A stretch of DNA of 64,000 nucleotides from Escherichia coli (lineage in GTDB: Bacteria; Pseudomonadota; Gammaproteobacteria; Enterobacterales; Enterobacteriaceae): assembly GCF_011045215.1 (NCBI RefSeq), contig NZ_CP049201.1; one strand, 5' to 3'. Every line of letters starts with the position of its first letter. Positions within the stretch are counted from its first letter, which is position 1. The notes beneath the pieces are model-generated. The model was given only the letters and a program-made list of their open reading frames with translations. It was not told where the DNA came from and ran no database searches. This document shows, one piece after another, positions 24,140-55,839 of this stretch. Position numbers and translations under genes: made by a program.

Positions 24140-25297
24140 ATGAATCCAGTACCCGCGCAACGTGAATATTTCCTCGACTCCATCCGCGCCTGGCTGATGT
24201 TGTTAGGGATCCCTTTTCATATTTCTTTAATCTATTCGAGCCATACATGGCATGTGAATAGCGCCGAACCGTCATTGTGGCTGACCCTTTTTAATGACTT
24301 CATCCACTCGTTCCGCATGCAGGTATTTTTCGTTATATCCGGCTACTTTTCCTACATGCTTTTTTTACGCTATCCCTTGAAAAAATGGTGGAAAGTACGT
24401 GTCGAACGTGTAGGTATCCCGATGTTAACAGCCATCCCCCTACTGACATTGCCGCAATTTATTATGCTGCAATACGTCAAAGGGAAAGCGGAAAGTTGGC
24501 CTGGGCTGTCATTGTATGACAAATATAATACGTTGGCCTGGGAATTAATATCACACCTGTGGTTTTTACTGGTGTTAGTAGTCATGACGACGCTGTGCGT
24601 ATGGATATTTAAACGCATCAGAAATAATTTAGAAAATTCTGATAAAACGAATAAAAAATTCTCGATGGTAAAACTATCGGTGATTTTTTTATGCCTCGGC
24701 ATCGGCTATGCGGTAATAAGAAGAACGATTTTTATTGTGTATCCGCCCATTCTGAGTAATGGCATGTTCAATTTTATTGTCATGCAAACGCTATTTTATT
24801 TGCCGTTCTTTATCCTCGGTGCACTGGCTTTCATTTTCCCTCATCTTAAAGCCTTGTTTACCACGCCGTCTCGTGGCTGTACCCTTGCAGCAGCATTGGC
24901 ATTTGTCGCTTATTTACTCAACCAGCGCTATGGCAGTGGCGATGCCTGGATGTACGAAACCGAGTCGGTGATCACCATGGTCCTCGGTCTGTGGATGGTG
25001 AATGTGGTCTTCTCCTTTGGCCACCGTTTGCTTAACTTCCAGTCAGCGCGGGTGACTTACTTTGTTAACGCATCGCTATTTATCTATCTGGTTCACCACC
25101 CGTTAACGCTGTTTTTCGGCGCATACATTACACCGCACATCACCTCCAACTGGCTTGGTTTTCTCTGTGGCCTGATATTCGTAGTAGGGATTGCGATAAT
25201 TCTGTATGAAATTCATTTACGCATCCCGTTACTGAAGTTTTTGTTTTCTGGTAAACCGGTTGTTAAGCGTGAGAACGATAAAGCACCAGCCCGTTAA
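24140..25297 (+). CDS. opgC: OPG succinyltransferase OpgC (MdoC)
   Basis: ORF track 385 aa, [39 protein letters not shown]..., polytopic membrane protein. Confidence 0.92.
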
Positions 25298-25304
25298 GCC
25301 ACAT

Positions 25305-26735
25305 TTACAATAACCATTCCACGGGCAATATCGACGCCAGTCTGACCATAACCCGCTTCCAGAAACTGGTGGCGGGTTCTTTTTTGAGAATAATCTCTTT
25401 CTTTGCATGACGATCAACCCAGTTGATCCGTCCCCACCTGTCCAGACGGAGCTGCCAGGCCGCATCATACTGGCTCTGAATAAAGCGTTTATCAATTAAC
25501 TGTGCCAGCGTTTCGCTCTCTATCACGAAGCCCATTTCAGTATTGAGCAATGTTGAACGCGGATCGAAATTGAAAGAGCCGATAAACACCGTTTTACCAT
25601 CGATGCTAAAGGTTTTAGCATGCAGGCTGGCTCCGGAATTACCGGTTATGCCGCGATCGTGTAACGTACTACTTTGTTCACGCGTCGGCTTGAGTTCATA
25701 TAATTCCACGCCATAGCGGAGCAATTTTTTGCGCCAGCGCGCGTATCCGGCATGGACGACAGCAACATCGTTAGCGGCAAGAGAATTGGTTAGGATCGCA
25801 ATCTTTACCCCTTTTCTCACCATCCGTAAGAGTTGCGCCACACCTGCGCGTGTCGGTACAAAATAGGAAGAGATAATATCGATGCGTTCACTGGGTGAGC
25901 CCATGATATCGAACAGGCGCTGCGGTAACAGTGAATGCCGTTTTGCCTTGCCCTCCCCTTTCGCCGGATCATCACTTAATAAACGTGTTTTCGCCCAGAT
26001 AAGCGGCAACGTTCCATCAACCAGATGATTTATAAACGGACTGGATTCCATTTTGCGTAAGTAACGATGCGTCATAGCATCGTTATGCCAGGAGGCGGGT
26101 AACTCGATGCGATCCGCCATTTCACCTTCCGGGACATCCAGCACTTGCTGTAAGGGTGAAACCGATTTGCAATACCAGTAGCGGGCGAAATCATCGGCAA
26201 CGTCCTCTACCACGGGCCCTATTGCCATAACATCTAAATCCGAAAAAAGTGGCTCTTCCCCTGCCCCAAAATAGGCATCACCAATATTTCGCCCCCCTAC
26301 CAGCGTCACCACGCCATCGACAGTGAAACTTTTATTGTGCATACGGCGATTGAGACGGGAAAAGTCGGTGATATAACCAAGCGGACGCAGCAAGCGAAAC
26401 GAGAAAGGATTAAAAAGCCGGACTTCAATGCGGGGATGGCTGTCAAGCAAGCGTAAAATGTCGTCAAGTCCGGGCGTATTGTTGTCGTCCAGCAACAAAC
26501 GGACGCGAACGCCACGCTTTGCTGCGGCTAACAGGGCGGAAAACAGTAACCGACCCGACATATCGTCCTGCCAGATGTAATACTGAACATCCAGCGTATG
26601 CTCTGCCATTTCGGCCAGACGATACCGGGCGGCAAACGCATCCAGACTTTTCTCCAGAGGGAAAAGACCACACTGACCGGGATGTTGCGAACACAGTGGC
26701 AGCACCGCGCTCGCCAGCCGGGGCAAATCATTCAT
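25305..26735 (-). CDS. clsC: cardiolipin synthase C ClsC (YmdC), phospholipase D family
   Basis: ORF track 25305..27002 (565 aa); the upstream part overlaps ymdB, so start placed at residue 90 Met, [21 protein letters not shown]..., 476 aa; start choice moderately uncertain. Confidence 0.85.
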
Positions 26736-27261
26736 CTCCTTGTTGGGTAAGGAGTCTTTCGTAGAGGTGGGCGTTTTCTTCATCATAACAGACAAAGTAT
26801 ACCTGTTCGGGTAAAGCGTGACGGGTAATAAATTCTGAAACGGTTTTAACTGCGATTTCAGCCGCTGCCGCACGAGGGTAACCATAAACCCCAGTACTGA
26901 TTGCAGGAAAAGCCACTGACGTATAGCTGTTTGCCGCCACCAGTCGTAGGCTATTGAGATAGGCATCCTGCAAAAGCTGGTCTTCGTTTTGTTCACCACC
27001 ACGCCAGACTGGCCCGACGGTGTGCACTACGGCTTTAGCGGGAAGAGCGCCTGCAAGCGTAATAACGGCATGCCCCGTAGGGCAATCGCCCTGCTGTTGC
27101 CTGACTTTTAAACAGGCATCCAGCAGGGCCGGACCCGCTGCGCGATGAATGGCCCCATCGACGCCGCCGCCTCCCATTAATGACGGATTAGCCGCATTCA
27201 CAATCACATCAACGGCCAGTTTGGTAATATCACCCTGCACAACATGAATACGCGTTTTCAT
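26728..27261 (-). CDS. ymdB: macro-domain O-acetyl-ADP-ribose deacetylase YmdB
   Basis: ORF track 177 aa, [43 protein letters not shown]...; stop overlaps clsC start by 8 nt. Confidence 0.93.
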
Positions 27262-27355
27262 AACGCCTCCTTACACCTTCTTGTTTCTTAAGTGTACAGC
27301 AGGCTTTTTGGTTAAATCGCATTTTTCTGCTCAGCAACGTGCGTTGTTCAGAAAC

Positions 27356-28120
<765 letters not shown>

Positions 28121-28138
28121 ATTCTTCTCCCGAAAAAA

Positions 28139-28166
28139 AACAGGGCTTGCGCCCTGTTTCTGTAAT
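28139..28166 (-). terminator. terminator after csgBA
   Basis: hairpin ACAGGGC-TTGC-GCCCTGT with T-run on the minus strand, between csgA stop and csgC start. Confidence 0.65.
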
Positions 28167-28178
28167 ACAAATGATGTA

Positions 28179-28634
28179 TTAGTACTGATGAGCGGTCGCG
28201 TTGTTACCAAAGCCAACCTGAGTCACGTTGACGGAGGAGTTAGATGCAGTCTGGTCAACTGCAGCACCGTTGCCACCACCGAACTGTTTAACCGTCATTT
28301 CAGAATTTTTGCCGTTCCACTGATCAAGAGTGGCGCTGTTACCGAAGCCACGTTGGGTCAGATCGATTGAGCTGTCATCTGAGCCCTGACCTACATCTGC
28401 ACCATTACCACCGCCATGCTGGGTAATAGTCAAGTCAGAGTTACGGGCATCAGTTTGCAGAGCAAGTGCAGAGTTACCGCCACCGTACTGGTAAATGTTC
28501 AGCTCTGAATTTGGGCCGCTATTATTACCGCCACCACCGTGGTTACCGCCGCCGCCGTACTGAGGAACAACACCTGCCAGAGCGCTACCGGAGAATACGA
28601 TTGCTGCAATTGCTGCTACTTTTAAAAGTTTCAT
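28179..28634 (-). CDS. csgA: major curlin subunit CsgA
   Basis: ORF track 151 aa, MKLLKVAAIAAIVFSGSALAGVVPQYGGGGNHGGGGNNSGPNSELNIYQYGGGNSALALQTDARNSDLTITQHGGGNGADVGQGSDDSSIDLTQRGFGNSATLDQW... Confidence 0.97.
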   Translation of the reverse strand: MKLLKVAAIAAIVFSGSALAGVVPQYGGGGNHGGGGNNSGPNSELNIYQYGGGNSALALQTDARNSDLTITQHGGGNGADVGQGSDDSSIDLTQRGFGNSATLDQWNGKNSEMTVKQFGGGNGAAVDQTASNSSVNVTQVGFGNNATAHQY

Positions 28635-28674
28635 GTAAAACCCCCATCGGATTGATTTAAAAGTCGAATGGAAA

Positions 28675-29130
28675 TTAACGTTGTGTCACGCGAATAGCCA
28701 TTTGCGACTGTCTCTGCACTACAATTGCCGTTTTTTGAGTACCATACTGTGTAATATTTGCTTTATTACCAGAACCTTTCTGGATAATCATCGCAGTATT
28801 ACCATAAGCACCTTGCGAAATACTGGCATCGTTGGCACTGCCCGCCTGATCAATATATGCAAGGTTATAATCTCCTGTCTGGTCAATCTTTGCCCGGTTG
28901 CTACTACCTTCTTGCGCAACAACCGCCAAAAGTTTTGAGCCTCCCTGCCGTAACTGAGCACTATTATTCGTCCCAGCTTGACCAATTATGGCTGCCTGAT
29001 TAAATGAAGACTTACTCAATTCATTTACCGCGAAGTTATATTCTGAATTAGCTAAATCATAACCTGCTGCGGCTGCAATCCCAGGCGCACCCAGTATTGT
29101 TAACATCATAAATAACAATTTGTTTTTCAT
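28675..29130 (-). CDS. csgB: minor curlin / nucleator CsgB
   Basis: ORF track 28675..29157; residue 10 Met gives 151 aa MKNKLLFMMLTILGAPGIAAAAGYDLANSEYNFAVNELSKS... Confidence 0.95.
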   Translation of the reverse strand: MKNKLLFMMLTILGAPGIAAAAGYDLANSEYNFAVNELSKSSFNQAAIIGQAGTNNSAQLRQGGSKLLAVVAQEGSSNRAKIDQTGDYNLAYIDQAGSANDASISQGAYGNTAMIIQKGSGNKANITQYGTQKTAIVVQRQSQMAIRVTQR

Positions 29131-29883
29131 GTTGTCACCCTGGACCTGGTCGTACATTTAAGAAATTAAATCATTTCAACTTGGTTGTTAACGCAACCTG
29201 TATTTTGTTAACGCTGCGTTACGATGGAAAGTATGTCTGCGGAAATATTTTTAATAACTCACCCGCGCGTTGTATTTTTCTTTTTTTGTTCATACCAAAG
29301 TATTAAAACCCACGTAAATACGCTGTTATCTACGCAAAAAATATTTTGTTTTCTTTTAAATCTCCGTTTTCCGCTATCAAAAATCACCAGACAGTCATTT
29401 TTCTTGCCCGTCGCTGATTGCTGCGATATGTCTTGCGCACAAGCCGTGACAAACCTCGTCTTTTTGCAGTAAAAAATTGTCCACGGAGGTGCGGAGAAAA
29501 AACAAGAACGTTTCACATGACGAAAGGACTACACCGAAATATTTTTTATATGTATTATTAGTAAGTTATCACCATTTGTATGATTTTTTAAAATTGTGCA
29601 ATAAAAACCAAATGTACAACTTTTCTATCATTTCTAAACTTAATAAAACCTTAAGATTAACATTTTAATATAACTAGTTACATTTAGTTACATGTTTAAC
29701 ACTTGATTTAAGATTTGTAATGGCTAGATTGAAATCAGATGTAATCCATTAGTTTTATATTTTACCCATTTAGGGCTGATTTATTACTACACACAGCAGT
29801 GCAACATCTGTCAGTACTTCTGGTGCTTCTATTTTAGAGGCAGCTGTCAGGTGTGCGATCAATAAAAAAAGCGGGGTTTCATC
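29131..29883. promoter_or_regulatory. csgBAC / csgDEFG divergent intergenic regulatory region
   Basis: 753-bp AT-rich spacer between divergent csgB and csgD; contains the GTTACATTTAGTTACATGTTTAACAC stretch recalled as the OmpR-binding region upstream of csgD; individual sites not mapped. Confidence 0.8.
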
Positions 29884-30534
<651 letters not shown>

Positions 30535-30538
30535 AGCC

Positions 30539-30928
30539 ATGAAACGTTATTTACGCTGGATTGTGGCGGCAGAATTTCTGTTCGCCGCAGGGAATCTTCA
30601 CGCCGTTGAGGTAGAAGTCCCGGGATTGTTAACTGACCATACTGTTTCATCTATTGGCCATGATTTTTACCGAGCCTTTAGTGATAAATGGGAAAGTGAC
30701 TATACGGGTAACTTAACGATTAATGAAAGGCCCAGTGCACGATGGGGAAGCTGGATCACTATAACGGTCAATCAGGACGTTATTTTCCAGACTTTTTTAT
30801 TTCCGTTGAAAAGAGACTTCGAGAAAACTGTCGTCTTTGCAATGATTCAAACTGAAGAAGCACTAAATCGTCGCCAGATAAATCAGGCGTTATTAAGTAC
30901 GGGCGATTTGGCGCATGATGAATTCTAA
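30539..30928 (+). CDS. csgE: curli secretion specificity factor CsgE
   Basis: ORF track 129 aa, [36 protein letters not shown]... Confidence 0.95.
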
Positions 30929-30952
30929 ATAAAAAATTGTTCGGAGGCTGCA

Positions 30953-31369
30953 ATGCGTGTCAAACATGCAGTAGTTCTACTCATGCTTATTTCGCCATTA
31001 AGTTGGGCTGGAACCATGACTTTCCAGTTCCGTAATCCAAACTTTGGTGGTAACCCAAATAATGGCGCTTTTTTATTAAATAGCGCTCAGGCCCAAAACT
31101 CTTATAAAGATCCGAGCTATAACGATGACTATGGTATTGAAACACCCTCAGCGTTAGATAACTTTACTCAGGCCATCCAGTCACAAATTTTGGGTGGGCT
31201 ACTGTCGAATATTAATACCGGCAAACCGGGCCGCATGGTGACCAACGATTATATTGTCGATATTGCCAACCGCGATGGTCAATTGCAGTTGAACGTGACA
31301 GATCGTAAAACCGGACAAACCTCGACTATCCAGGTTTCGGGTTTACAAAATAACTCAACCGATTTTTAA
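30953..31369 (+). CDS. csgF: curli assembly component CsgF
   Basis: ORF track 138 aa, [49 protein letters not shown]... Confidence 0.95.
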
Positions 31370-31395
31370 GCCCCAGCTTCATAAGGAAAATAATC

Positions 31396-32229
31396 ATGCA
31401 GCGCTTATTTCTTTTGGTTGCCGTCATGTTACTGAGCGGATGCTTAACCGCCCCGCCTAAAGAAGCCGCCAGACCGACATTAATGCCTCGAGCTCAGAGC
31501 TACAAAGATTTGACCCATCTGCCAGCGCCGACGGGTAAGATCTTTGTTTCGGTATACAACATTCAGGACGAAACCGGGCAATTTAAACCCTACCCGGCAA
31601 GTAACTTCTCCACTGCTGTTCCGCAAAGCGCCACGGCAATGCTGGTCACGGCATTGAAAGATTCTCGCTGGTTTATACCGCTGGAGCGCCAGGGCTTACA
31701 AAACCTGCTTAACGAGCGCAAGATTATTCGTGCGGCACAAGAAAACGGCACGGTTGCCATTAATAACCGAATCCCGCTGCAATCTTTAACGGCGGCAAAT
31801 ATCATGGTTGAAGGTTCGATTATCGGTTATGAAAGCAACGTCAAATCTGGCGGGGTTGGGGCAAGATATTTTGGGATCGGTGCCGACACGCAATACCAGC
31901 TCGATCAGATTGCCGTGAACCTGCGCGTCGTCAATGTGAGTACCGGTGAGATCCTCTCCTCGGTGAACACCAGTAAGACGATACTTTCCTATGAAGTTCA
32001 GGCCGGGGTTTTCCGCTTTATTGACTACCAGCGCTTGCTGGAAGGGGAAGTGGGTTACACCTCAAACGAACCCGTTATGCTGTGTCTGATGTCGGCTATC
32101 GAAACAGGGGTCATTTTCCTGATTAATGATGGTATTGACCGTGGTCTGTGGGATTTGCAGAACAAAGCAGAACGGCAGAATGACATTCTGGTGAAATACC
32201 GCCATATGTCGGTTCCACCGGAATCCTGA
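31396..32229 (+). CDS. csgG: curli secretion channel lipoprotein CsgG
   Basis: ORF track 277 aa, MQRLFLLVAVMLLSGCLTAPPKEAARPTLMPRAQSYKDLTHLP... Confidence 0.96.
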   Translation: MQRLFLLVAVMLLSGCLTAPPKEAARPTLMPRAQSYKDLTHLPAPTGKIFVSVYNIQDETGQFKPYPASNFSTAVPQSATAMLVTALKDSRWFIPLERQGLQNLLNERKIIRAAQENGTVAINNRIPLQSLTAANIMVEGSIIGYESNVKSGGVGARYFGIGADTQYQLDQIAVNLRVVNVSTGEILSSVNTSKTILSYEVQAGVFRFIDYQRLLEGEVGYTSNEPVMLCLMSAIETGVIFLINDGIDRGLWDLQNKAERQNDILVKYRHMSVPPES

Positions 32230-32235
32230 CAGATA

Positions 32236-32305
32236 AAAAAGCCGGAATTATCATCCGGCATTTTACTGCTTAAGCGAAAGCGTGAGTGCCCCTCACGCTT
32301 TATTT
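32236..32305. terminator. two hairpin terminators between convergent csgG and ycdZ
   Basis: GCCGGAATTATCATCCGGC+ATTTT and AGCGTGAG-TGCCCC-TCACGCT+TTATTTTT read directly. Confidence 0.7.
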
Positions 32306-32784
32306 TTGATTTCCTGCTCACGGTGCGCCGTCTTTGCACTACGCGCCGCCAGCCACAGGCCGCTGTTTTTCATTGCGTAACCAAATATCAGCCCAAGCGC
32401 CAGCGAAGGTAACACCAGTTTCCAGTCACCCTGCCCGGCAAACGTCGCGCATGCGCCTATAAACGTCCCCGGAACAAATGAAAGCAGCAGCTGTTTGGCC
32501 TGAATACACATCAGAAACGCGACAATACCGGTTATGACATAACCGAGAATTTCCAAATGTGGCGTCAGTGCACTACCGTAAATAATGACCATCGCCCACA
32601 CCACGCCACTAAGCAGGGTTGCAGCGGAGATCGCCAGCCCTTTCAGCCCACCTTGCGGGCAGGCAAAGTAGGCCGTACAGCCCAGGAAGCCCGCCCAGCT
32701 TAGTAAGCCCAGGGAAACAGCCACCCATCCCCAGATACCGGAGAGAATGCCTGTTGTGATTGCAATAGAGAGAAGTATGTTCAT
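32293..32784 (-). CDS. ycdZ: inner membrane protein YcdZ (DUF1097)
   Basis: ORF track 32293..32832; residue 17 Met gives 163 aa MNILLSIAITTGILSGIWGWVAVSLGLLSWAGF... Confidence 0.88.
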   Translation of the reverse strand: MNILLSIAITTGILSGIWGWVAVSLGLLSWAGFLGCTAYFACPQGGLKGLAISAATLLSGVVWAMVIIYGSALTPHLEILGYVITGIVAFLMCIQAKQLLLSFVPGTFIGACATFAGQGDWKLVLPSLALGLIFGYAMKNSGLWLAARSAKTAHREQEIKNKA

Positions 32785-32885
32785 GCCGCGCATGATAGCA
32801 GAAAACGCGGCCATGAATGAGATCGAGCACACATTTTATGCAACAACAAATTATCTGTTGCAGTTATGAGTGACGATGATCACAT

Positions 32886-33440
32886 TTACTCTTCAGAATC
32901 TTCTTCCAGCTCGTCCCACATTGCACTAATGGCATCACGGGTTAGCGGTGCCATGGTGCGCCAGAAAGGCGTGGTTGCATGGGCCTCCACTTTGCCGAGG
33001 AACGCACCACACCAGGGTAACAGATACTCACTGAACAGTGTTTCCAGTGCTTCGCTCTCATCTTCCGTTGACTGATCTTCCAGCCAGGAAGCCGCAAGCA
33101 GCAATGTGCCGATGTGATCGGCTGGCGTATCCGCCAGTGGCATCCCTCGTTCGGAAAGAAAAGCGCGCACTTCCGCTTCCGTTGCGTCCTCAACCCATGC
33201 GCTACGATATGGCGGCACGGCACATTCATCGCCGATAAACAACGCATTGTAATCGGCAGAGACTTGCGCCATATCACAGCTTTTCTGTAAACGCGTCAGT
33301 AACTCATCCTGCTCCAGTGGCCAGTTCGCAGCCAGTTTCCCCTCACGAATCAGGGTAAACAGCGGCACCAGTAAAGGATCTTGCGGTTGGCGGTAATAGA
33401 GCGAACCCAGCACACGACAGAGGATAGAAAACTCGTTCAT
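32886..33440 (-). CDS. ycdY: TorD-family redox enzyme maturation chaperone YcdY
   Basis: ORF track 184 aa, MNEFSILCRVLGSLYYRQPQDPLLVPLFTLIREGKLAANWPLEQDELL... Confidence 0.9.
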   Translation of the reverse strand: MNEFSILCRVLGSLYYRQPQDPLLVPLFTLIREGKLAANWPLEQDELLTRLQKSCDMAQVSADYNALFIGDECAVPPYRSAWVEDATEAEVRAFLSERGMPLADTPADHIGTLLLAASWLEDQSTEDESEALETLFSEYLLPWCGAFLGKVEAHATTPFWRTMAPLTRDAISAMWDELEEDSEE

Positions 33441-33463
33441 TAATATATTTCCATTACTAGTAA

Positions 33464-34201
33464 TTAAAGGTCTGCAAATTCCGCAATCGGTGCCATACCG
33501 CGAGATTCAAGGAAGTTCAGTAAGCGGCGCGGCGAAACATTCAAAATGCGCTCTGGCGGAAAATCTACCGCGTCGAGGATTTTAAGACACTCTTCAAATT
33601 CCCCCATGGTAAACGCGGTGTGAGAATCCGAGCCTAATGCCACCCAACCTCCAGCATCACGTACCGCTGCGGCTACCGCACGACAGTTGTCTTCACTGCC
33701 CTTACGTGAGTGTAAAAATGAAGAATTATTGATTTCCAGCGCCACCTGATGTTTCGCGGCTGCTTCAGCAACGGCTTTCACATCTATTTCATATTTGGGA
33801 TTTCCGGGATGGCTTATTATATGCACATTGCCGCTGGCGATAGTGGCGATCATCGCTTGTGTATTGGTCGCTTTGTCATGTGGTGCAAAAACCGGCTCAT
33901 GAAAACCGGCAATAATCAGATCCAGCGAGTCAAACATTTTACCGCTGCAATCAATTTCACCATCAACATTTTTAATGTTAGCTTCGATGCCGCGCAGGAT
34001 CCCTACCCCATCAACCACTCGCGGCCAGATACGCATGTTAATGAAGTGCCAGTGATGCGGAGCATCTTCCATATCCGGGCCATGATCGGTGATCGCAAAA
34101 AGTTTAATGCCCTTTTGTTTGGCCTGGGCAATGTAATCACTCAATGTGCTATATGCATGTGTGCTGGCAACGGTATGCATATGAAGGTCGACGGGATACA
34201 T
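33464..34201 (-). CDS. ycdX: PHP-family zinc phosphatase YcdX
   Basis: ORF track 245 aa, [53 protein letters not shown]... Confidence 0.92.
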
Positions 34202-34255
34202 AACTCTCTCCTGTATTCAATTCCCGCCAAGGATAGCAGGAATCCTGATGCTTTA

Positions 34256-35233
<978 letters not shown>

Positions 35234-35427
35234 TTATCGTTATGATCTACAAAGACCACCAGCATAACAAATCCGTGGTCGGTGGCAAAAAAAGCAGATT
35301 TCGCTTATTAAAACCACATATTGATTGAAGTTTGAATAAACGCGCGATTTTTTAAAAAAGTTTGTTGACCTCAGGTCATGATTTCCCTAAATTAGCGCCC
35401 GTTCCAGCAAGACAGGAACGACAATTT

Positions 35428-35515
35428 GGTGAGGTGTCCGAGTGGCTGAAGGAGCACGCCTGGAAAGTGTGTATACGGCAACGTATCGGGGGTTCGAATC
35501 CCCCCCTCACCGCCA
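35428..35515 (+). tRNA. serX: tRNA-Ser (anticodon GGA)
   Basis: 88-nt sequence GGTGAGGTGTCCGAGTGGCTGAAGGAGCACGCCTGGAAAGTGTGTATACGGCAACGTATCGGGGGTTCGAATCCCCCCCTCACCGCCA; anticodon loop CTGGAAA, long variable arm, GGTTCGAATCC T-arm, CCA end; coordinates anchored to overlapping ORF 35442..35702. Confidence 0.95.
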
Positions 35516-35518
35516 GAT

Positions 35519-35552
35519 TATAAGCGCATGTTATTGTTTAACATGCGCTTTT
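35519..35552 (+). terminator. rho-independent terminator after serX
   Basis: AAGCGCATGTT-ATTGTTT-AACATGCGCTT followed by TTTTTATTTT. Confidence 0.8.
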
Positions 35553-35664
35553 TTATTTTCCCTTTCAGACAGTATGCCATCGGGTATGCCATCTGAAACC
35601 GGTTTATATGCCCCGCGATCATATCTTATCGGACAATTTCCGATCTTTGAGCATACTGGCAAAG

Positions 35665-36507
35665 CTATACTGCCAGCATATCAGGATAGTGTTTTGCGAT
35701 AATATCATTCAGTCTGTCAACCAGTTCTGGTTTTCTGAACGTGATATGCGCGGAGCCCTTCTTAAAGTATCTGATGCTGAACATCTCATCTTCATAGCTC
35801 TCTTTACCCTGAACAGACTGAATGTGATCATCCAGACGAAGGGTGATGTTTCCCCGGTTGTCGGGGATTGGTTTACCGCTGAACAGGTGCAACATTCTTT
35901 CCAGATCGGCGAGTCGATCTGCCTGTTGCCCGGTGATAAGGTGAAATCCCCACCGGTCCCACCTCACCAGGTTGTTGACGATAATTTTACTGCCAAATTT
36001 GCAGGGGCAATTGGTTTTGTAATTCCAGTTCAATCCTCTGAAGACGTTGATCACCCCTCGCTCAAACACCTCATCCTTATTCTGGTGCAGTTGTTCAAAT
36101 GTGCTCAGAATGTTCGCTTCGCTGATTTCCGGAAAATTATCGTACTCCAGTGACCGGTACCATGTATCACGGGCCTGCGTATCCATTAATGACAGCATCC
36201 CGGAACGTTGCATCAGGTCACGCCAGATTTCGCGATCAAGATTCCGGGTAATGGCTTTCATTGCTGTTTCGGGTTTCTCCATCAGCCAGCAACCGCAGCG
36301 AAAATCCTGTTTCATGGCCCAGTCCGGGGCAGTTTTACCTCCGATGCTTTCCGTCAGCACCGAGATTTCAGCCAGTTGTCGGATAAGTGTGTCGATTTGC
36401 AACAGTGTACTCTTTCGTACAGCCAGAATGTGGCGAATGCTGGTTGAGCAGATAACGTCCGTATGCCCGTTGACCACTTCCGGACGGGAGATTGTGATAT
36501 CTGACAT
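35665..36507 (-). CDS. island protein of unknown function, recalled as DUF4942-like
   Basis: ORF track 280 aa, MSDITISRPEVVNGHTDVICSTSIRHILAVRKSTLLQIDTLIRQ...; first gene of the island next to serX; family from recollection of CP4-like islands. Confidence 0.6.
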   Translation of the reverse strand: MSDITISRPEVVNGHTDVICSTSIRHILAVRKSTLLQIDTLIRQLAEISVLTESIGGKTAPDWAMKQDFRCGCWLMEKPETAMKAITRNLDREIWRDLMQRSGMLSLMDTQARDTWYRSLEYDNFPEISEANILSTFEQLHQNKDEVFERGVINVFRGLNWNYKTNCPCKFGSKIIVNNLVRWDRWGFHLITGQQADRLADLERMLHLFSGKPIPDNRGNITLRLDDHIQSVQGKESYEDEMFSIRYFKKGSAHITFRKPELVDRLNDIIAKHYPDMLAV

Positions 36508-36591: not shown

Positions 36592-36789
36592 TCACCGGTT
36601 CTGGTGCAGAAGCTGCAGATGACGCAGGGTACGGACATCCTCCCGGGCCTGTTCGATACAGGGCAACAGTGCTGCTGAATCCGTTTTATCCTCATCGTTG
36701 TCAAAGATAATTCCCGATCCGCAGTCGATATTGTCCTGCAGCCACGCAATCAGAATATCCAGCGCTGTTTCCGTGGTTAATGATTTCAT
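36592..36789 (-). CDS. small island protein, recalled as DUF957-like
   Basis: ORF track 36592..36834; residue 16 Met gives 65 aa MKSLTTETALDILIAWLQDNIDCGSGIIFDNDEDKTDSAALLPCIEQAREDVRTLRHL... Confidence 0.6.
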   Translation of the reverse strand: MKSLTTETALDILIAWLQDNIDCGSGIIFDNDEDKTDSAALLPCIEQAREDVRTLRHLQLLHQNR

Positions 36790-36800
36790 GTTGTTTCTGG

Positions 36801-37289
36801 TTACCAGTCGAAAGTGGGTAAACCCGGCAGGCATTCAGCGCTGGCATCCAGATGAATGAGACTGACGCCATAACGTCGGGTAAGTGTGACAACCAGACGA
36901 CGGAACGTTTTTGACAGGCCCAGGCGCTTAAGCCGCAGAACCGGGTATGACCACGCATCGGTACGTAACAGATATCCGCTACCTGTGAAATGAATCCATT
37001 CTGATTCGCCGGTGTCATTCGTCTGATGTGACAGCGAGTACAGCCAGGCGTTGTCCTTTTCCGTGATATGTGCGGTACTGCAGCGTATGCCGGTAAGGGC
37101 AGCAAATGGTGGCGTGCAGTCTGCTGAGGTCCGGTCAGATTCATCAACAACACGAAGGGAGTAGCCGTTATCGCAGACCATGTTAATCAGTTCAGCGAGC
37201 TCAATACCATCAACGTCAACGACAATGCGCCCCATGTTCAGTGCCTGCACGTTAATGCTGTCGGCTTCCAGCGTCAGGGCCAGTTTCAT
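36801..37289 (-). CDS. YeeW-like protein downstream of the toxin gene
   Basis: ORF track 162 aa, MKLALTLEADSINVQALNMGRIVVDVDGIELAELINMVCDNGYSLRV...; ATG overlaps the toxin stop (ATGA). Confidence 0.7.
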   Translation of the reverse strand: MKLALTLEADSINVQALNMGRIVVDVDGIELAELINMVCDNGYSLRVVDESDRTSADCTPPFAALTGIRCSTAHITEKDNAWLYSLSHQTNDTGESEWIHFTGSGYLLRTDAWSYPVLRLKRLGLSKTFRRLVVTLTRRYGVSLIHLDASAECLPGLPTFDW

Positions 37290-37663
37290 TGTTTCGCCCC
37301 CGGATGTTTACCCAGGGTAATGTTATTTACCGTTCTGTAGTTGTCGCGTGTCATCAGGCCGGTTGCCCGGCGTGCCCGGAGGATATCAATACTGTTTATT
37401 AACTGAGAACGGGTACAGGCGCTGAATCCCGGCTGGTCGGTACGCACCAGTGCGTATTTTTCAACGAGAAAGTTCACCGCATTGCACAGTGAAATGCCTG
37501 CCTCAATATGCTGCTCAATCACACGTTCATCAGCGAACGGTGTGTCATTCAGTGTGAGACCGTAATGCTGGTCCAGCAGTCGGGTGAGCAGTGTCTGCCA
37601 GATGGTGACGGGAGACGGGCAGCGCGATGCCTCCCGTACGTGTGTGTCAGGTAATGTTTTCAT
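37286..37663 (-). CDS. CbtA/YeeV/YkfI-family type IV toxin (cytoskeleton-targeting)
   Basis: ORF track 37286..37765; residue 35 Met gives 125 aa MKTLPDTHVREASRCPSPVTIWQTLLTRLLDQHYGLTLNDTPFADERVIEQHIEAGISLCNAVNFLVEKYALVRTDQPGFSACTRSQLINSIDILRARRATGLMTRDNY..., near-identical to recalled CbtA/YpjF. Confidence 0.9.
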   Translation of the reverse strand: MKTLPDTHVREASRCPSPVTIWQTLLTRLLDQHYGLTLNDTPFADERVIEQHIEAGISLCNAVNFLVEKYALVRTDQPGFSACTRSQLINSIDILRARRATGLMTRDNYRTVNNITLGKHPGAKQ

Positions 37664-37709: not shown

Positions 37710-38084
37710 TTATGAGGTGGTTGCGGGTGCCAGTGTCGAATAAACAGCCATATAAACGTAACCACAGCTGCCGAGGGTGTCGGCTTCGCAGGTCAGCCCT
37801 CTGGCATACAGCGTGACGGTATGCTGATGGCGGGGATTCAGTTCACCGCTGGTGAGCATGAGTTCCAGTTGTTTCATCAGCAGCGGAAAGGCCTGGTCCA
37901 GATGGTACGCATCCGCGTCGCTGAACCGGCCTCTGATACCGGCGCGGTCTGCAAGGTAATGCAACCGGTTACCCTCCTGCACCAGACGTGCTCCGAAACA
38001 AGGTGTCACGGTACAGGGCAGTCCCCACCAGGGGCGGCCGCGATTGTCGTCGGGATGAGTTGTCTCATGGAGTGTGTCTGACAC
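37710..38084 (-). CDS. CbeA/YeeU/YfjZ-family antitoxin
   Basis: ORF track 124 aa, MSDTLHETTHPDDNRGRPWWGLPCTVTPCFGARLVQEGNRLHYLADRAGIRGRFSDADAYHLDQAFPLLMKQLELMLTSGELNPRHQHTVTLYARGLTCEADTLGSCGYVY...; directly upstream of the toxin. Confidence 0.9.
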   Translation of the reverse strand: MSDTLHETTHPDDNRGRPWWGLPCTVTPCFGARLVQEGNRLHYLADRAGIRGRFSDADAYHLDQAFPLLMKQLELMLTSGELNPRHQHTVTLYARGLTCEADTLGSCGYVYMAVYSTLAPATTS

Positions 38085-38158: not shown

Positions 38159-38380
38159 TCAGTTCAGAGTGACGCTCATCAGCCGGACATACGGGCCAAA
38201 ACTGTCCTTACGGCGTTCTGCAAACACGGCCAGCACACCGGGAATATCCTGCACTTCACGACCGGTATACGCCTCAGCACTGCCGTGCCAGCGGTATTTG
38301 CCGGTACAGAACGGAAAAAGACGGGATGCAGGATGTTGTTGGTGAATACGCATGGCTTCACCACGGGTGATAATTTTCAT
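38159..38380 (-). CDS. YeeT-like protein (DUF987)
   Basis: ORF track 73 aa, MKIITRGEAMRIHQQHPASRLFPFCTGKYRWHGSAEAYTGREVQDIPGVLAVFAERRKDSFGPYVRLMSVTLN. Confidence 0.85.
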   Translation of the reverse strand: MKIITRGEAMRIHQQHPASRLFPFCTGKYRWHGSAEAYTGREVQDIPGVLAVFAERRKDSFGPYVRLMSVTLN

Positions 38381-38448
38381 GGTGGGATACCTCTGAAGAC
38401 AGAAGATAAAAGTGAAAACAGGTGTGATGTGGTTGTGACGGTGACGGG

Positions 38449-38940
38449 TTAAAGCAGACCGTGTTCCGCAAAGGAGAAAACCTGGTTGCCTCCGACTATC
38501 AGATGGTCCGGCACCCGGATGTCCACCAGGGCCAGCGCCTGTACCAGACGTTCGGTGATAAGCCGGTCTGCCTTACTGGGTGTGACTTCACCGGACGGAT
38601 GATTGTGTGCCAGCACCACGGCTGCGGCATTGTGATACAGGGCGCGTTTAATCACTTCCCGGGGATGGACTTCCGTGCGGTTGATAGTGCCGGTGAAGAG
38701 GGTTTCACCGGCAATCAGCTGATTCTGGTTATTCAGATACAGCACCCGGAATTCTTCACGCTCCAGTCCCGCCATGTTCAGAATCAGCCATTCCCGTGCC
38801 GCATGCGTGGAGGTGAAGGCCACGCCGGGTTCATGAAGATGGCGGTCCAGGGTTTTCAGGGCCCGCTGAATGAGACTGCGCTCGCCGGGCGTCATCTCTC
38901 CGGGCAGAAAGGAAAGCTGTTGCATTGCCCCTGCCTCCAT
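38449..38940 (-). CDS. RadC-like JAB-domain protein (YeeS/YkfG/YfjY family)
   Basis: ORF track 163 aa with HNHPSGEVTPSKAD (JAMM-like HxHPSG) motif; alternative ATG at 38925 (MQQLSFLPGEMTPGERSLIQRAL...). Confidence 0.88.
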   Translation of the reverse strand: MEAGAMQQLSFLPGEMTPGERSLIQRALKTLDRHLHEPGVAFTSTHAAREWLILNMAGLEREEFRVLYLNNQNQLIAGETLFTGTINRTEVHPREVIKRALYHNAAAVVLAHNHPSGEVTPSKADRLITERLVQALALVDIRVPDHLIVGGNQVFSFAEHGLL

Positions 38941-39426
38941 TCAGTCGATGATGCGCATAATGGCGCTGCATTCCGGATGTTGCAGGGCGTAATCCCGCAA
39001 CCGATAATAATGGACCGTCATGGCATAACACTCCGTACGACAGGCATGATGACTGTACGTCATCAGACAGGCGGCAATGCCGGCGGCTTCCGGACTCATT
39101 TCAGCGCGGTTACCGTTCATGGCATTGAACAGTACCCATGTTTCGTCATCATCGTCATCCGGTTCGGGTGCCATAAATGCCCCGCCGTTGTTCAGGGTGT
39201 ACAGATTCCAGATACCACCGCAGTAGTCTTCGCACAGACGGTCCATCCAGCCGAAGACACGGGGTTCCAGGGTCACCCACTGTGGAATGAGGCCAAAGTG
39301 CTGCGGCCAGAAGCTGATGCGCTGTTCATCAGGGACGGGAGTGGCAACCAACTGAGACTGGTTATTCCCTGATGCAGTAGTTACGGAAACAGAAGGTGTG
39401 GTGGAGCTATGCGAAAAGGTTGTCAT
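38941..39426 (-). CDS. antirestriction protein, ArdB/KlcA family (YfjX/YafX-like)
   Basis: ORF track 161 aa; C-terminal 120 aa (RISFWPQHFGLIPQWVTLEPRVFGWMDRLCEDYCGGIWNLYTLNNGGAFMAPE...HYYRLRDYALQHPECSAIMRIID) match recalled YfjX/KlcA. Confidence 0.85.
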   Translation of the reverse strand: MTTFSHSSTTPSVSVTTASGNNQSQLVATPVPDEQRISFWPQHFGLIPQWVTLEPRVFGWMDRLCEDYCGGIWNLYTLNNGGAFMAPEPDDDDDETWVLFNAMNGNRAEMSPEAAGIAACLMTYSHHACRTECYAMTVHYYRLRDYALQHPECSAIMRIID

Positions 39427-39517
39427 GAGATGATTCCTTATAAAAAGTAAATGAATGGAAGAATGCCTGGGGATTGGTACAGACGTGAGTCAGGGCTGCA
39501 CTTTCAGGGAAACAGCA

Positions 39518-40336
39518 TTAGCGCATGCTCTCCAGCAGCGTTTCTGCCATCACCCACAATGCGCGATTGAGCTTAATGTCCGTGTCGATGCTGTGAATGG
39601 CACGGGTGTGGATACGTTTTCCTTTAGCGCTGCGACCGGAAATTCCGCCTTTCAGCATATTCTCCTGAATGGTCTGATAAGCACTCCACAGGTCCTTACC
39701 GTAATCCTCCCTGCGTCGTGGTGTCAGAATGTCGGCGGTGGTGACGGGCTGATGTTCGTCACCATAACGGTAAGTCAGTGCCGCCTGTGCCAGCGCCTGG
39801 TGTGCCGGTGGCGGCAGAATCAGCGACTGCATGGCATCACGCTTTTCCTCAATCCGGTCAAAAACGCCCACCACTTCGTAAGCCCCTTCAATAACTTTCT
39901 CCACCACGTCTCCCCGGTGCGGAACACGCACCTCTCCCAGAGACTGACCGCAGACGCACCCGTTCTGACAAACGAATCTGAAGTAACCCGGCAGCATCTG
40001 GTAGCTGGAGGTACCGTCATGGGAATTGAGCAGGATGATTTCCGGGACATGCTGTCCGTTTATCTCTCCGGCCCGCCGCAGACGCAGCATGTGTTTGGTA
40101 TACCCCCGGCGGCCCGGGTCACGTACGCGGGTCTGGCAGGCGAAGAAGGGCTGAAAGCCCTCCCGCTGCAGACTTTCCAGCACGGTGATGGTGGGGATAT
40201 ACGTATAGCGTTCACTGCGGGAGGTATGCCGGTCTTCCCCAAAAATACCGGGTACATAGTGCATCAGCTCTTCATGTGTCAGCGGACGGTCACGGCGTAT
40301 CTGGTTCGCATAACCAAAACGACTTGCTAATCGCAT
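39518..40336 (-). CDS. DUF932-domain protein (YafZ/YfjQ-like)
   Basis: ORF track 272 aa, MRLASRFGYANQIRRDRPLTHEELMHYVPGIFGEDRHTSRSERYTYIPTITVLESLQREGFQPFFACQTRV... Confidence 0.75.
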   Translation of the reverse strand: MRLASRFGYANQIRRDRPLTHEELMHYVPGIFGEDRHTSRSERYTYIPTITVLESLQREGFQPFFACQTRVRDPGRRGYTKHMLRLRRAGEINGQHVPEIILLNSHDGTSSYQMLPGYFRFVCQNGCVCGQSLGEVRVPHRGDVVEKVIEGAYEVVGVFDRIEEKRDAMQSLILPPPAHQALAQAALTYRYGDEHQPVTTADILTPRRREDYGKDLWSAYQTIQENMLKGGISGRSAKGKRIHTRAIHSIDTDIKLNRALWVMAETLLESMR

Positions 40337-40544
40337 GATCTGCTCCTTATGAATGATTAAGCGGTATAAATGAAAAAGCCGCAGCTCCCGGAGAAGACGC
40401 GGCCTGATGGATGATGTTTATTGTCTGAGGTACCCTTCACGGGCGGGCCACGCATTAAGCTGTTATGACAGCAACCGCCTGCCCGTATGAGAAAGATCCT
40501 TCAGCCAGGACATACTCTGTGTAACCCGGCATATCTGTTTTCTC

Positions 40545-40585
40545 CTGATAAATAAAAAGCCTCTGCCACGCGTTGTGACAGAGGC
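40545..40585 (-). terminator. terminator after the secreted-protein gene
   Basis: hairpin GCCTCTG-N11-CAGAGGC with T-run on the minus strand. Confidence 0.6.
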
Positions 40586-40610
40586 TGAAGCATGAAACTG
40601 ACTTCAGGGA

Positions 40611-41066
40611 TCAGTTAACGTTTTTTCCGGAAACGGTAATTAGCAGTGGATGGTAGTCCTGGGGATCGAAAACCGATAACGGCAGACTGACACGATGGCC
40701 GTTACTTTCTTCAGTTGCTTTAATGATTTCGGTTGTGGCGACATTTTCCACGCACTCCGTTTCCAGAAATGCGTCTGTGGTTCGCGTGGCATCACTGTCA
40801 CCAAAGGCTTCCGTTTCCATTTTTCTGGTCACCAGCCTCTGACCATATTTGTCTTTGAGTTGCAGAGTGATGGTGAGGGGGCCAAATCCTTCTCCGTTTC
40901 CGCCATTATCCAGCCGGAACTGGTAAGCACAAATATTTCCCGGGAGCCATATCGTATCTGTATTGCGTATACTGATGTAACGTTGATCCTGTGCCCGGAG
41001 TGGGGCAGACCACGTTAACCCCAGAATGACGCCGGTAATAATGCAGGTTTTGAACAGGTGAATCAT
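40611..41066 (-). CDS. hypothetical secreted protein
   Basis: ORF track 151 aa, MIHLFKTCIITGVILGLTWSAPLRAQDQRYISIRNTDTIWLPGNICAYQFRLD...; predicted cleavable signal peptide; no family recognised. Confidence 0.6.
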   Translation of the reverse strand: MIHLFKTCIITGVILGLTWSAPLRAQDQRYISIRNTDTIWLPGNICAYQFRLDNGGNGEGFGPLTITLQLKDKYGQRLVTRKMETEAFGDSDATRTTDAFLETECVENVATTEIIKATEESNGHRVSLPLSVFDPQDYHPLLITVSGKNVN

Positions 41067-50309: not shown

Positions 50310-52748
50310 ATGGCTATCAAAAAAACCGAACTCTATTCTTCCCTGTGGGCAAGCTGCGACGAACTGCGTGGCGGGATGGACGCCAGCCAGTACAAAGACT
50401 ATGTACTGACCCTGCTGTTTATGAAGTACGTTTCCGATAAGTATAAAGGCGATCCTTACGGGATGATCGTGATACCCAAAGGAGCCAGCTTTGACGATAT
50501 GGTTGCGCTGAAAAATGACAAAGAGATCGGCGACAAAATCAACAAAATCATCCACAAGCTGGCGGAAGAGAACGGCCTGAAGGGCGTCATCGACGAAGCC
50601 GACTTTAACGACGAAGATAAGCTCGGCAAAGGCAAGGAAATGATTGACCGCCTGAGCAAGCTTGTCGGTATCTTTGAAGGGTTAAATCTCTCCAGCAACC
50701 GGGCCGAAGGCGACGATCTGCTGGGCGATGCCTATGAATATCTGATGCGTCACTTCGCAACCGAATCCGGTAAGAGTAAAGGGCAGTTTTACACTCCAGC
50801 GGAGGTGTCACGTATTCTGGCGAAGGTGATTGGTATTACTCCCGATACTCCGCAAGATGCAACGGTTTATGACCCAACCTGTGGCTCTGGTTCGCTGCTG
50901 TTGAAAGTGAATGATGAAGCCCGGCGCGGACTGTCGATTTTCGGCCAGGAGATGGATAACGCTACCAGTGCGCTGGCGCGGATGAACATGATTCTGCATA
51001 ACAATGCCACCGCGAAAATCTGGCAGGGCAATACGCTGAGCGATCCGCAGTGGAAAGAGGCGAACGGCAAACTGAAAGCCTTCGATTTTGCCGTGGCGAA
51101 CCCGCCTTTTTCCAATAAAAACTGGACCAACGGGCTGACGCCGAAAAAAGATCCGTTTGAACGCTTCGGCTGGGGTATTCCGCCGGAAAAAAACGGCGAT
51201 TATGCTTTTTTGTTGCATATCATTAAAAGCCTGAAAAGTACCGGCAAAGGCGCGGTGATCCTGCCCCACGGCGTACTGTTTCGCGGTAACGCCGAAGCGA
51301 ATATCCGTGAAAATCTAATCAAGCAGGGCTATATCAAAGGCGTTATTGGTTTGCCAGCCAACCTGTTTTACGGCACCGGCATCCCGGCGTGCATCATTGT
51401 GATTGATAAAGAGCACGCCCACAGCCGCAAAGGCATTTTTATGATCGACGCCAGCCGGGGCTTTATCAAAGATGGCAACAAGAACCGCCTGCGTAGCCGA
51501 GATATTCACCGCATTGTGGACGTGTTCAACCATCAGCGAACGGTACCTGGCTACAGCCGGATGGTGCCCTCCAGCGAGATCGCCGGAAATGATTACAACC
51601 TGAATATTCCTCGCTATATCGAGAGCGGCGAGCCGGAAGATTTACACGATCTGACCGCGCACTTACAGGGCGGTATTCCGGCACGCGATGTGGATGCTTT
51701 GCAAGATTACTGGCGGGTATTCCCTGCCCTGCGCAACGTGCTGTTTGCTGACGACCGTCCCGGTTACTGTCGGGCGCAGGTGAACGCGCAACAGGTGAAA
51801 CCGACCATTCTGGCGCATCAGGAGTTTAAGGATTTTGCCACCCGCAGCCTGCTACCGTTTAAAGCGTGGGTGAAAGAGGCAAGTCTGGAAGAGATTCGCA
51901 AAGGTGATAAACCCAAAGCGCTAATCCACGATATCAGCGAAATGCTATTGGCGCAGTACGCCAACAGTGAGTTGCTGAACAAATACAGCGTGTACCAGAT
52001 CCTGATGGATTACTGGACTGATGTCATGCAAGACGATGTGTATGCGATTATGCAGGATGGCTGGCAAGCCGCCGCGCAAATCCGCGAGCTTCAGCCGGTG
52101 AAAGGCAAAGATGGCAAAAACATCTGGAAAGAAACGCACGATTTCGAGTTTACCAAACGGCGCTACAAGGCCGATGTGCTGCCCCGTTCGCTGGTGGAAA
52201 TTCGCTGTTTCCCGGAACTGCTGGATGCGCTGAACCGCGCGCAGGAGCGCAGTGAAGAAGCCAGTCGTCAGCTAGTGGAATTCATCGAGGAGCAGGCAGG
52301 TGAAGAGGATCTGCTGGCCGAGGCGAAGAACGATAAAGATAAGGTGACGCAAAAGCTGGTGAATGCCCGTCTAGCACAGTTAAAGAAAACCACTGCCGGC
52401 CCAGATGAGCTGGCAGTGCTGAACCGCTGCCTGGCGCTAATTAAGGCCGAAGCCAGTGCGAAAAAAGCGCTGAAAGCCGCACAAGAAGCGCTGGATCGGG
52501 CGGTGTTTAAACATTATCCCACGCTGGATGAAGCAGCGATTAAAACGCTGGTAGTGCAGGATAAGTGGCTGGCAACGTTGCAGGCAGGGATCAAGGCGGA
52601 GATTGAGCGTATTACCCAGCAACTGGCGTCGCGCGTAAAGGAGCTGGAAGAGCGTTATGCTGAACCGTTGCTAGCGCTTGAAGCCTCCGTTGAGGCGTTG
52701 AGCGAGAAAGTGGCCGGGCATTTGCGGGCGATGGGGCTGGAGTGGTGA
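50310..52748 (+). CDS. hsdM: type I restriction-modification system methyltransferase subunit HsdM (long form)
   Basis: ORF track 812 aa; AdoMet motif DPTCGSGSLL and catalytic motif VANPPFS read directly; stop overlaps hsdS start. Confidence 0.9.
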   Translation: MAIKKTELYSSLWASCDELRGGMDASQYKDYVLTLLFMKYVSDKYKGDPYGMIVIPKGASFDDMVALKNDKEIGDKINKIIHKLAEENGLKGVIDEADFNDEDKLGKGKEMIDRLSKLVGIFEGLNLSSNRAEGDDLLGDAYEYLMRHFATESGKSKGQFYTPAEVSRILAKVIGITPDTPQDATVYDPTCGSGSLLLKVNDEARRGLSIFGQEMDNATSALARMNMILHNNATAKIWQGNTLSDPQWKEANGKLKAFDFAVANPPFSNKNWTNGLTPKKDPFERFGWGIPPEKNGDYAFLLHIIKSLKSTGKGAVILPHGVLFRGNAEANIRENLIKQGYIKGVIGLPANLFYGTGIPACIIVIDKEHAHSRKGIFMIDASRGFIKDGNKNRLRSRDIHRIVDVFNHQRTVPGYSRMVPSSEIAGNDYNLNIPRYIESGEPEDLHDLTAHLQGGIPARDVDALQDYWRVFPALRNVLFADDRPGYCRAQVNAQQVKPTILAHQEFKDFATRSLLPFKAWVKEASLEEIRKGDKPKALIHDISEMLLAQYANSELLNKYSVYQILMDYWTDVMQDDVYAIMQDGWQAAAQIRELQPVKGKDGKNIWKETHDFEFTKRRYKADVLPRSLVEIRCFPELLDALNRAQERSEEASRQLVEFIEEQAGEEDLLAEAKNDKDKVTQKLVNARLAQLKKTTAGPDELAVLNRCLALIKAEASAKKALKAAQEALDRAVFKHYPTLDEAAIKTLVVQDKWLATLQAGIKAEIERITQQLASRVKELEERYAEPLLALEASVEALSEKVAGHLRAMGLEW

Positions 52749-54088: not shown

Positions 54089-54100
54089 AAGGGAAAGCAC

Positions 54101-54757
54101 ATGGCTTATGATTACAGCGCCAGCCTCAACCCGCAAAAAGCTCTGATCTGGCGTATCGTCCATCGGGACAATATCCCGTGGATTCTGGATAACGGGCTGC
54201 ACTGCGGCAACAGTCTGGTGCAGGCGGAAAACTGGATCAATATCGGCAACCCGGAGCTGATCGGCAAGCGTGCCGGGCATCCGGTACCTGTCGGAACGGG
54301 CGGGACACTGCATGACTATGTGCCGTTTTATTTTACCCCCTTCTCGCCAATGCTGATGAACATCCACAGCGGGCGCGGCGGCATTAAGCAACGCCCCAAT
54401 GAGGAGATCGTTATTCTGGTCAGCAACTTGCGGAACGTGGCAGCACACGACGTGCCCTTCGTGTTTACCGACAGCCATGCTTACTATAACTGGACCAACT
54501 ACTACACCAGTCTGAATAGTCTGGACCAGATCGACTGGCCCATTTTGCAGGCACGGGACTTTCGCCGCGATCCAGACGATCCGGCTAAATTTGAACGCTA
54601 TCAGGCAGAGGCGCTAATCTGGCAACACTGCCCGATCTCTCTGCTGGATGGGATAATTTGTTACAGCGAAGAGGTCAGGTTACAATTAGAGCAATGGCTG
54701 TTTCAGCGTAATCTAACAATGTCCGTTCACACACGGGCTGGATGGTACTTCTCATGA
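54101..54757 (+). CDS. darT: DarT, DNA ADP-ribosyltransferase toxin (DUF4433)
   Basis: ORF track 218 aa; motifs [18 protein letters not shown] and C-terminal GWY(F) line up with recalled DarT; starts 13 nt after hsdS stop. Confidence 0.88.
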
Positions 54758-55821: not shown

Positions 55822-55839
55822 GGGTTTAAGGAGCGCCTT

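Follow-up and report, generated by a model that had tools for sequence, protein, structure and literature searches.

The intergenic stretch at positions 35516-35664 of the window (the whole 64-kb stretch of E. coli DNA that was analysed) is very likely the P' arm of an attL, i.e., the tRNA-side junction of an island of the SRL PAI/OI-43/OI-48/SpLE1/PAI-serX family, whose integrase most probably lies beyond position 64000. The junction is an ordinary attL of a well-characterised island family and, in this sense, represents already known biology. A sequence-only reading of the same DNA had remarked on the lack of an integrase next to the tRNA and had proposed that the integrase lies outside the window, that the island is an old degenerate remnant, or that it has been rearranged. 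The first of these proposals is favoured by the evidence laid out below, whereas the hint of decay or rearrangement drawn from the absence on the tRNA side is not supported. The underlying premise, that an integrase should be expected beside the tRNA, does not hold: the integrase is distal in OI-48/SpLE1, MLI114, O157 NE92, an ileX island and K-12 CP4-6. Presumably, the expectation reflected a CP4-57-like layout, in which int stands beside the RNA gene. In this large class of E. coli islands, the lack of an integrase at the tRNA does not point to decay.

Island boundary at the 3' end of serX

The boundary is defined by three adjoining or overlapping features:

35428-35515, plus strand: serX (ARAGORN, Rfam), with a 3' end apparently rebuilt by the island att core
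35502-35515, plus strand: att core CCCCCTCACCGCCA (14 bp, the last 14 bp of serX), from the attL/attB/attR alignment
35516-35664, plus strand: probable P' arm of attL, island DNA from the core to the first island gene, diverging from the K-12 empty site at 35516

The single tRNA gene that ARAGORN finds in the 64-kb window is serX, a tRNA-Ser(GGA) gene; Rfam concurs with the call (tRNA, 53.8 bits), and the gene is intact, with 88 of its 88 bases identical to MG1655 serX. Upstream of it, ghrA, ycdX, ycdY and the csg genes stand in the K-12 arrangement, and megablast reports K-12-type DNA (L003 and L010) as collinear with the window from 24501 to 35523, the position at which the alignments of 4,000-odd genomes likewise end. 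Position 35523 was rejected as the breakpoint, the 8 bases of megablast overshoot being a partial chance match (GATTATAA vs TATTTAAA). In a base-by-base alignment of the window junction (attL), a K-12-like empty site (attB) and the far junction of the MLI114 island (attR), the three sites are identical through ...AATCCCCCCCTCACCGCCA, i.e., up to the CCA at 35515; past this point the window reads GATTATAAGCGC... and the empty site reads TATTTAAAGAAGAGC..., the divergence starting at 35516. Because identity stops at the CCA and the 8-base overshoot is a chance match, the insertion boundary is 35515|35516, and the junction hence sets one island boundary at base resolution. This comparison with a K-12-type serX-ycdU junction had been suggested as a check by the sequence-only reading, and it bears out both the presence of an island junction directly behind serX and the end of backbone synteny at that gene. 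The stretch 35516-35664 corresponds exactly to the intergenic DNA from the CCA end of serX to the stop codon of the DUF4942 gene (35665), and Rfam has no match in it. A minus-strand 'Plastid-psbl-rps4' Rfam match within the tRNA is weak and sub-threshold and was set aside as chance.

The K-12-like empty site (L003 11003-11740) runs from the CCA of serX through the native serX terminator and four tandem 181-bp rtT-like repeats to ycdU, none of which follow serX in the window. In occupied genomes, the native serX sequence of the empty site returns after the distal core. This pattern bears on the view that there is no insertion at all and that the downstream DNA is merely backbone absent from K-12: the presence of that DNA in a quarter of genomes (see below) could be taken to favour such a view, however, the direct passage of empty sites from the CCA into the native terminator, and the return of the same sequence after the distal core when the site is occupied, leave it with practically no probability. 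Backbone directly downstream of serX, which the earlier reading had named as the outcome that would speak against an insertion, was not found.

The 14-bp core CCCCCTCACCGCCA recurs at the far end of related islands beside the integrase, once in O157 NE92 and twice in MLI114, and corresponds, as the reverse complement, to the published direct repeat TGGCGGTGAGGGGG of OI-43/48 and SRL PAI. In EDL933, OI-43 and OI-48 are flanked by perfect 14-bp copies of this repeat, equivalent to the last 14 bp of serW/serX, and the Shigella SRL PAI has identical ones (PMC3064760). Judging from the sequence shared by the aligned sites, the crossover would have taken place somewhere inside the 14 bp at 35502-35515. 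A second serX 3' end is absent from the window, where neither a 28-mer allowing 3 mismatches nor the exact 14-mer matches anywhere but at serX.

The native site has a further peculiarity. The last 19 bp of serX form the end of each 181-bp rtT-like repeat and, because this is true of all four repeats, the empty K-12 serX site contains five copies of the 14-bp att core. Core copies are also kept at the distal junction of occupied genomes, with one in O157 and two in MLI114 and TUM12357 (L002 33365 and 33545; L015 1654 and 1835). The rtT-associated copies could act as alternative attB sites or as substrates for copy-number change.

Island-side att arm and the distal integrase of related islands

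Three elements can be recognized in the P' arm:

35522-35556, plus strand: intrinsic terminator for serX, island-supplied (terminator scan, 12-pair stem and T-run)
35572-35592, plus strand: direct GTATGCCAT doublet with a spacing of 12 bp, candidate arm-type integrase sites
35627-35637, plus strand: TATCGGACAAT, a second motif in both att arms, an 11-mer present in the attL of the window and in the attR arm of MLI114

The terminator-like hairpin (35522-35550), followed by the T-run, has a folding energy of -17.4 kcal/mol (z = -7.5), as compared with -20.4 kcal/mol for the native K-12 serX terminator hairpin. The island terminator takes the place of the native one, which is now displaced to the far end. 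The earlier description of a terminator followed by the toxin-antitoxin end of a CP4-44-like block beside the tRNA is upheld by this hairpin and by the Pfam assignment of the CbtA/CbeA pair (see below). Downstream of the terminator, the copies of GTATGCCAT start at 35572 and 35584; the 9-mer is rare, with one other copy in the 64-kb window. The attR of MLI114, of O157 and of three diverged islands also has a GTATGCCAT doublet of the same spacing and orientation, placed between the start codon of the integrase gene and the core; the integrase-end DNA of the three diverged islands is 93-98% identical to that of MLI114. Since the integrase of these relatives carries an arm-binding domain (it comprises Arm-DNA-bind_3, Phage_int_M and Phage_integrase domains), it is plausible that the doublets are arm-type integrase sites. 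As for the second motif, its ATCGGACA part does not vary among the five attR arms aligned and is kept in all but one of the six attL arms, GF60 having ATCAGACA instead; it is possibly a site for an accessory factor or for the integrase.

A natural variant of this arm is seen in strain CRE1540 (L012, NZ_CP019051.1), which likewise has a serX-type island: a clean 12-bp deletion in its attL drops exactly one GTATGCCAT repeat. This variant could show whether the repeats matter for excision.

A 201-bp junction query, consisting of the core, 35516-35664 and the DUF4942 stop codon, was searched for in 5426 complete E. coli genomes. The attL junction was recovered in 1353 of them, about a quarter, at 1459 places, and in 608 genomes, including O157:H7, O145:H28 and O111:H8, at 99% identity or more. 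Among the attL matches listed, every one is annotated as tRNA-Ser followed by DUF4942. That the junction is common to a quarter of the complete E. coli genomes speaks against a rearrangement specific to this strain. More generally, the view that an inversion or recombination moved the toxin-antitoxin end to serX and ousted the integrase has a precedent of sorts in tRNA/tmRNA islands with int beside the RNA gene, e.g., K-12 CP4-57. However, the exact succession of tRNA, core, P' arm and DUF4942 gene in 1353 genomes belongs to many lineages, the junction fits what has been published for OI-48, where int stands at the ycdU end (PMC3064760), and divergence begins precisely where the att core stops, as in site-specific integration and unlike an inversion. 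A rearranged island is thus a very remote prospect.

Neither an integrase nor a transposase was detected in the 64-kb window, in agreement with the earlier reading. A tblastn search with two serX-type integrases (from MLI114 and O157) and one ileX-type integrase gave a best E of 0.39, and a tblastx search with 17 IS segments of related islands recovered no transposase; its sole match, an 'HTH-like domain' ORF at 50031-50270 (Pfam HTH_73), was rejected as lacking a transposase catalytic domain. In the relatives, the integrase is found at the opposite end of the island. The MLI114 island ends in a tyrosine recombinase gene (L002 32002-33204, minus strand), located ~80 kb from serX on the opposite strand to it and reading inward, with CCCCCTCACCGCCA 160 bp further on (at 33365) and then the native serX terminator. 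The O157 NE92 counterpart (L007 19900-21102, minus strand; core at 21263) adjoins ycdU, ~89 kb from serX, and the MLI114/O157 integrase is a protein of 400 aa (MAVLTDTKARHIKPDDKPLPHGG...). The junction and integrase searches place both ends in matching relative order and strand in three more genomes, where they are 62, 83 and 134 kb apart. Likewise, OI-48/SpLE1 has its P4-family integrase (Z1559) at the ycdU/ser'X end and an intact serX at the opposite end (PMC3064760). The same layout extends to the ileX island with its different integrase, which runs from an intact tRNA through the DUF4942/CbtA-CbeA end and the cargo to an inward-reading integrase.

The scenario that best fits these observations is one in which a tyrosine recombinase of the P4 type, bearing an arm-binding domain, joined the attP core CCCCCTCACCGCCA to the identical last 14 bp of serX. 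Such a recombination would have rebuilt an intact serX tRNA gene and would have placed the island terminator and the CbtA/CbeA-DUF4942 end directly behind it. The int gene, which in attP flanks the core on its opposite side, would have been carried to the distal junction (attR), where it would read inward, with the cryptic ser'X core next in line and the native serX terminator after that. Given this arrangement of core and int in attP, the integrase of the serX family lies 60-130 kb from the tRNA; the att core is so oriented that the tRNA adjoins the toxin-antitoxin end instead. As the window covers only the first 28.5 kb of the island, the integrase is to be sought beyond its last base, and we infer that this genome retains int and attR. 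The far boundary expected on the ycdU/phoH side would comprise the integrase, ...TTTCAGGCGGT followed by CCCCCTCACCGCCA, and the native serX terminator TATTTAAAGAAGAGCTCGTACG...; the integrase would be on the opposite strand to serX and 150-170 bp from the core, with TATTTAAAGAAGAGCTCGTACGAAAGTACGGGCTTTTTTTT and zero or more 181-bp rtT-like repeats after it.

The integrase-attR end was found in 1267 of the 5426 genomes, at 1368 places. Genomes with attL therefore outnumber those with int-attR by about 86, which suggests, from two totals in which the genomes are unpaired, that more than 90% of the junction-bearing genomes keep the integrase end and that roughly 6-7% are without it. This excess could be read as favouring an orphan attL, under which the island is a decayed or truncated remnant that has lost its int end and attR, e.g., by IS-mediated or homologous deletion, and would be fixed in place unless served in trans. 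Loss of the 5' (int) ends of both islands has been reported in O157 strain 95S (PMC3064760), and the cargo in the window is an unusual mosaic absent from complete genomes. Against this stand the apparent retention of the integrase end in the great majority of the junction-bearing genomes, the lack of IS remnants or obvious pseudogene scars in 28.5 kb, and an att arm essentially identical to that of the excision-proficient O157 islands. OI-43 and OI-48 have been observed to excise completely via recombination between their repeats (PMC3064760), and excision of the SRL PAI is int-dependent (PMC7545054). On balance, an orphan attL appears unlikely. A related reading, which we consider distinctly improbable, is that of an integrase-less island whose fully intact attL (core and putative arm sites) allows it to be excised or moved in trans through a sibling island, e.g., at serW, that encodes a near-identical integrase; in that event, the up to five att cores in the native serX rtT-like repeats could offer alternative landing sites.

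Comparison with known islands

The window island shares with the SRL PAI/OI-43/OI-48 family the insertion at the 3' end of serX with the tRNA left intact, the 14-bp core CCCCCTCACCGCCA at the junction, and an att arm on the island side with homology to the arms of characterised members, its 201-bp junction being 99.5% identical to those of the O157:H7 islands and including the GTATGCCAT doublet. OI-48/SpLE1 of O157:H7, a tellurite-resistance and adherence island with OI-43 as its serW twin, is likewise inserted at serX, has the 14-bp core, places a DUF4942/CbtA-CbeA/Ag43 end beside the intact tRNA and has its integrase at the distal ycdU/ser'X end. The two differ in cargo, with ter, ure and iha in OI-48 as against the type I restriction-modification (R-M) operon with DarTG, Ail/Lom outer membrane protein, orphan CdiA-CT and arc operon of the window island; further, unlike OI-48, the latter is devoid of IS elements in its first 28 kb. 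The SRL PAI of Shigella, here compared on the basis of published descriptions, targets serX (and serW), has the same 14-bp direct repeats as OI-43/48 and undergoes int-dependent precise excision; its integrase is 99% identical to that of OI-43/48 at the nucleotide level, save for a 15-bp length difference (PMC3064760, PMC7545054). Its cargo of resistance genes and fec is unlike that of the window island.

Islands at serX have also been described in CFT073, UTI89, RS218 and others (reviewed in PMC7545054). The ExPEC islands of the PAI-CFT073-serX/PAI-UTI89-serX type, together with the MLI114 island, are serX islands with Ag43, as is the island in the window. Overall, the MLI114 island is the closest: between serX and the M48 gene (window 35.4-59.75 kb) it is 96-99% identical, and its integrase and core are distal. 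Past 59.75 kb the two part ways, with IS remnants, afa-type fimbriae and iro genes in MLI114 and a cdi/arc module in the window.

Among the K-12 elements, CP4-6 has the same architecture as the window island, running from thrW and the ykfI-yafW toxin-antitoxin end to an inward-reading intF at the far end. CP4-44 shares with the window the gene block yeeP-flu-yeeR-yeeS-yeeT-cbeA-cbtA (names as in the annotations of relatives). Both CP4-6 and CP4-44 differ from the window island in tRNA target and integrase, and CP4-44 is not known to possess a flanking tRNA or an integrase. CP4-57, inserted at ssrA, has the internal order int ... GTPase ... antirestriction-RadC-DUF987-antitoxin-toxin, as do islands of the window type. 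However, in CP4-57 (ssrA-intA ... yfjZ-ypjF) the intact RNA gene stands beside int, away from the toxin end, and the att core is reversed with respect to int. The internal gene order is the same in both layouts; they differ only in how the att core is oriented with respect to int, and the rebuilt tRNA goes to one end or the other accordingly.

Backbone genes and cargo of the island

The genes next to serX are as follows:

35665-36507, minus strand: DUF4942 gene, the outermost island gene (Pfam PF13708, 1.1e-68)
36592-37289, minus strand: small DUF957 and DUF5983 genes (ORFs; PGAP names in the 96.8%-identical MLI114 stretch)
37286-37660, minus strand: CbtA-family type IV toxin (Pfam CbtA_toxin, 1.2e-62, ORF residues 35-146)
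37710-38084, minus strand: CbeA/YeeU-family antitoxin (Pfam CbeA_antitoxin, 1.7e-54)
38159-41066, minus strand: DUF987 (YeeT), RadC/JAB (YeeS), antirestriction, DUF932 and IrmA genes (PHROGs matches; PGAP names in MLI114)
41142-47911, minus strand: YeeR-like protein, Ag43 autotransporter and YeeP-like GTPase (ORFs; NCBIfam for the GTPase; PGAP names)

These first fourteen island genes, from DUF4942 to the GTPase, are all on the minus strand, and the CbtA/CbeA, RadC/JAB, DUF987, antirestriction, DUF932, Ag43 and GTPase genes are present in the order seen in annotated relatives, as in a CP4-44-like backbone. The CbtA ORF is open to 37765, and its likely start yields a protein of 124 aa. While CbtA, CbeA and DUF4942 were assigned by Pfam, PADLOC gave no family for CbtA, and NCBIfam gave none for DUF4942, the YeeR-like protein, a 314-aa ORF, the M48 peptidase or the CdiA-CT fragment. 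The M48 and YeeR-like assignments are PGAP names of relatives, and that of CdiA-CT is a PT-VENN mark.

Two further observations pertain to this block. First, an Rfam 'IS102 RNA' match above the gathering threshold (46647-46883, minus strand, 74 bits) overlaps the start and upstream region of the Ag43 ORF (43779-46703); despite its name, this is an intergenic sRNA/leader family, and no insertion sequence is involved. Second, the low-GC region between the GTPase gene and the R-M operon (48088-49803, minus strand, GC 0.37) contains a 314-aa ORF (48088-49032) and a 102-aa ORF. Both are without an NCBIfam match, the 314-aa ORF is also without a PADLOC match, and their relatives are annotated as hypothetical.

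Beyond this region lies the cargo:

50310-59651, plus strand: type I R-M operon hsdM-hsdS-darT-darG-hsdR and M48 peptidase (PADLOC; M48 a PGAP name in MLI114)
60259-62208, minus strand: Ail/Lom-type outer membrane protein, 77-aa ORF and orphan CdiA-CT (PT-VENN) fragment (NCBIfam PRK15240/OmpX; Pfam marks on identical products in other contigs)
63049-64000, plus strand: arcA (arginine deiminase), cut by the window end (317 aa identical to ArcA of mip270_05; annotated matches)

In the R-M operon, PADLOC recognizes MTase_I, Specificity_I, DarT (2.2e-74), DarG (1.5e-127) and REase_I, and the DarT-DarG DNA ADP-ribosylation toxin-antitoxin pair sits inside the operon, between hsdS and hsdR. An M48/YgjP-like peptidase comes after the operon, and this defence-island cargo module is 99.5% common with MLI114. 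In the segment that follows, the 77-aa ORF is a possible immunity protein. The truncation of arcA at 64000 indicates that the island extends past the window end; the ArcA protein itself is widespread, being found in 17,095 blocks of the protein collection.

Across the 5426 complete E. coli genomes, no island match exceeds 96.6%, and none of them combines the R-M module with the Ail/Lom protein, 77-aa ORF, CdiA-CT fragment and arc genes. The mosaic at 59.7-64 kb is found in only one draft contig, GCA_015120945.1, which is 99.95% identical over 51081-62710 and ends at window position 62710. The cargo, i.e., the R-M operon with embedded DarTG, the orphan CdiA-CT and the arc operon, is hence a new mix of known modules in the same kind of element. 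Within the same region, some short segment of 59660-62060 has matches in 3244 genomes, as many as 45 in a single genome, and 2297 matching places are plasmid-borne, which suggests either a repeated element or a conserved segment of the CdiA/Rhs type.
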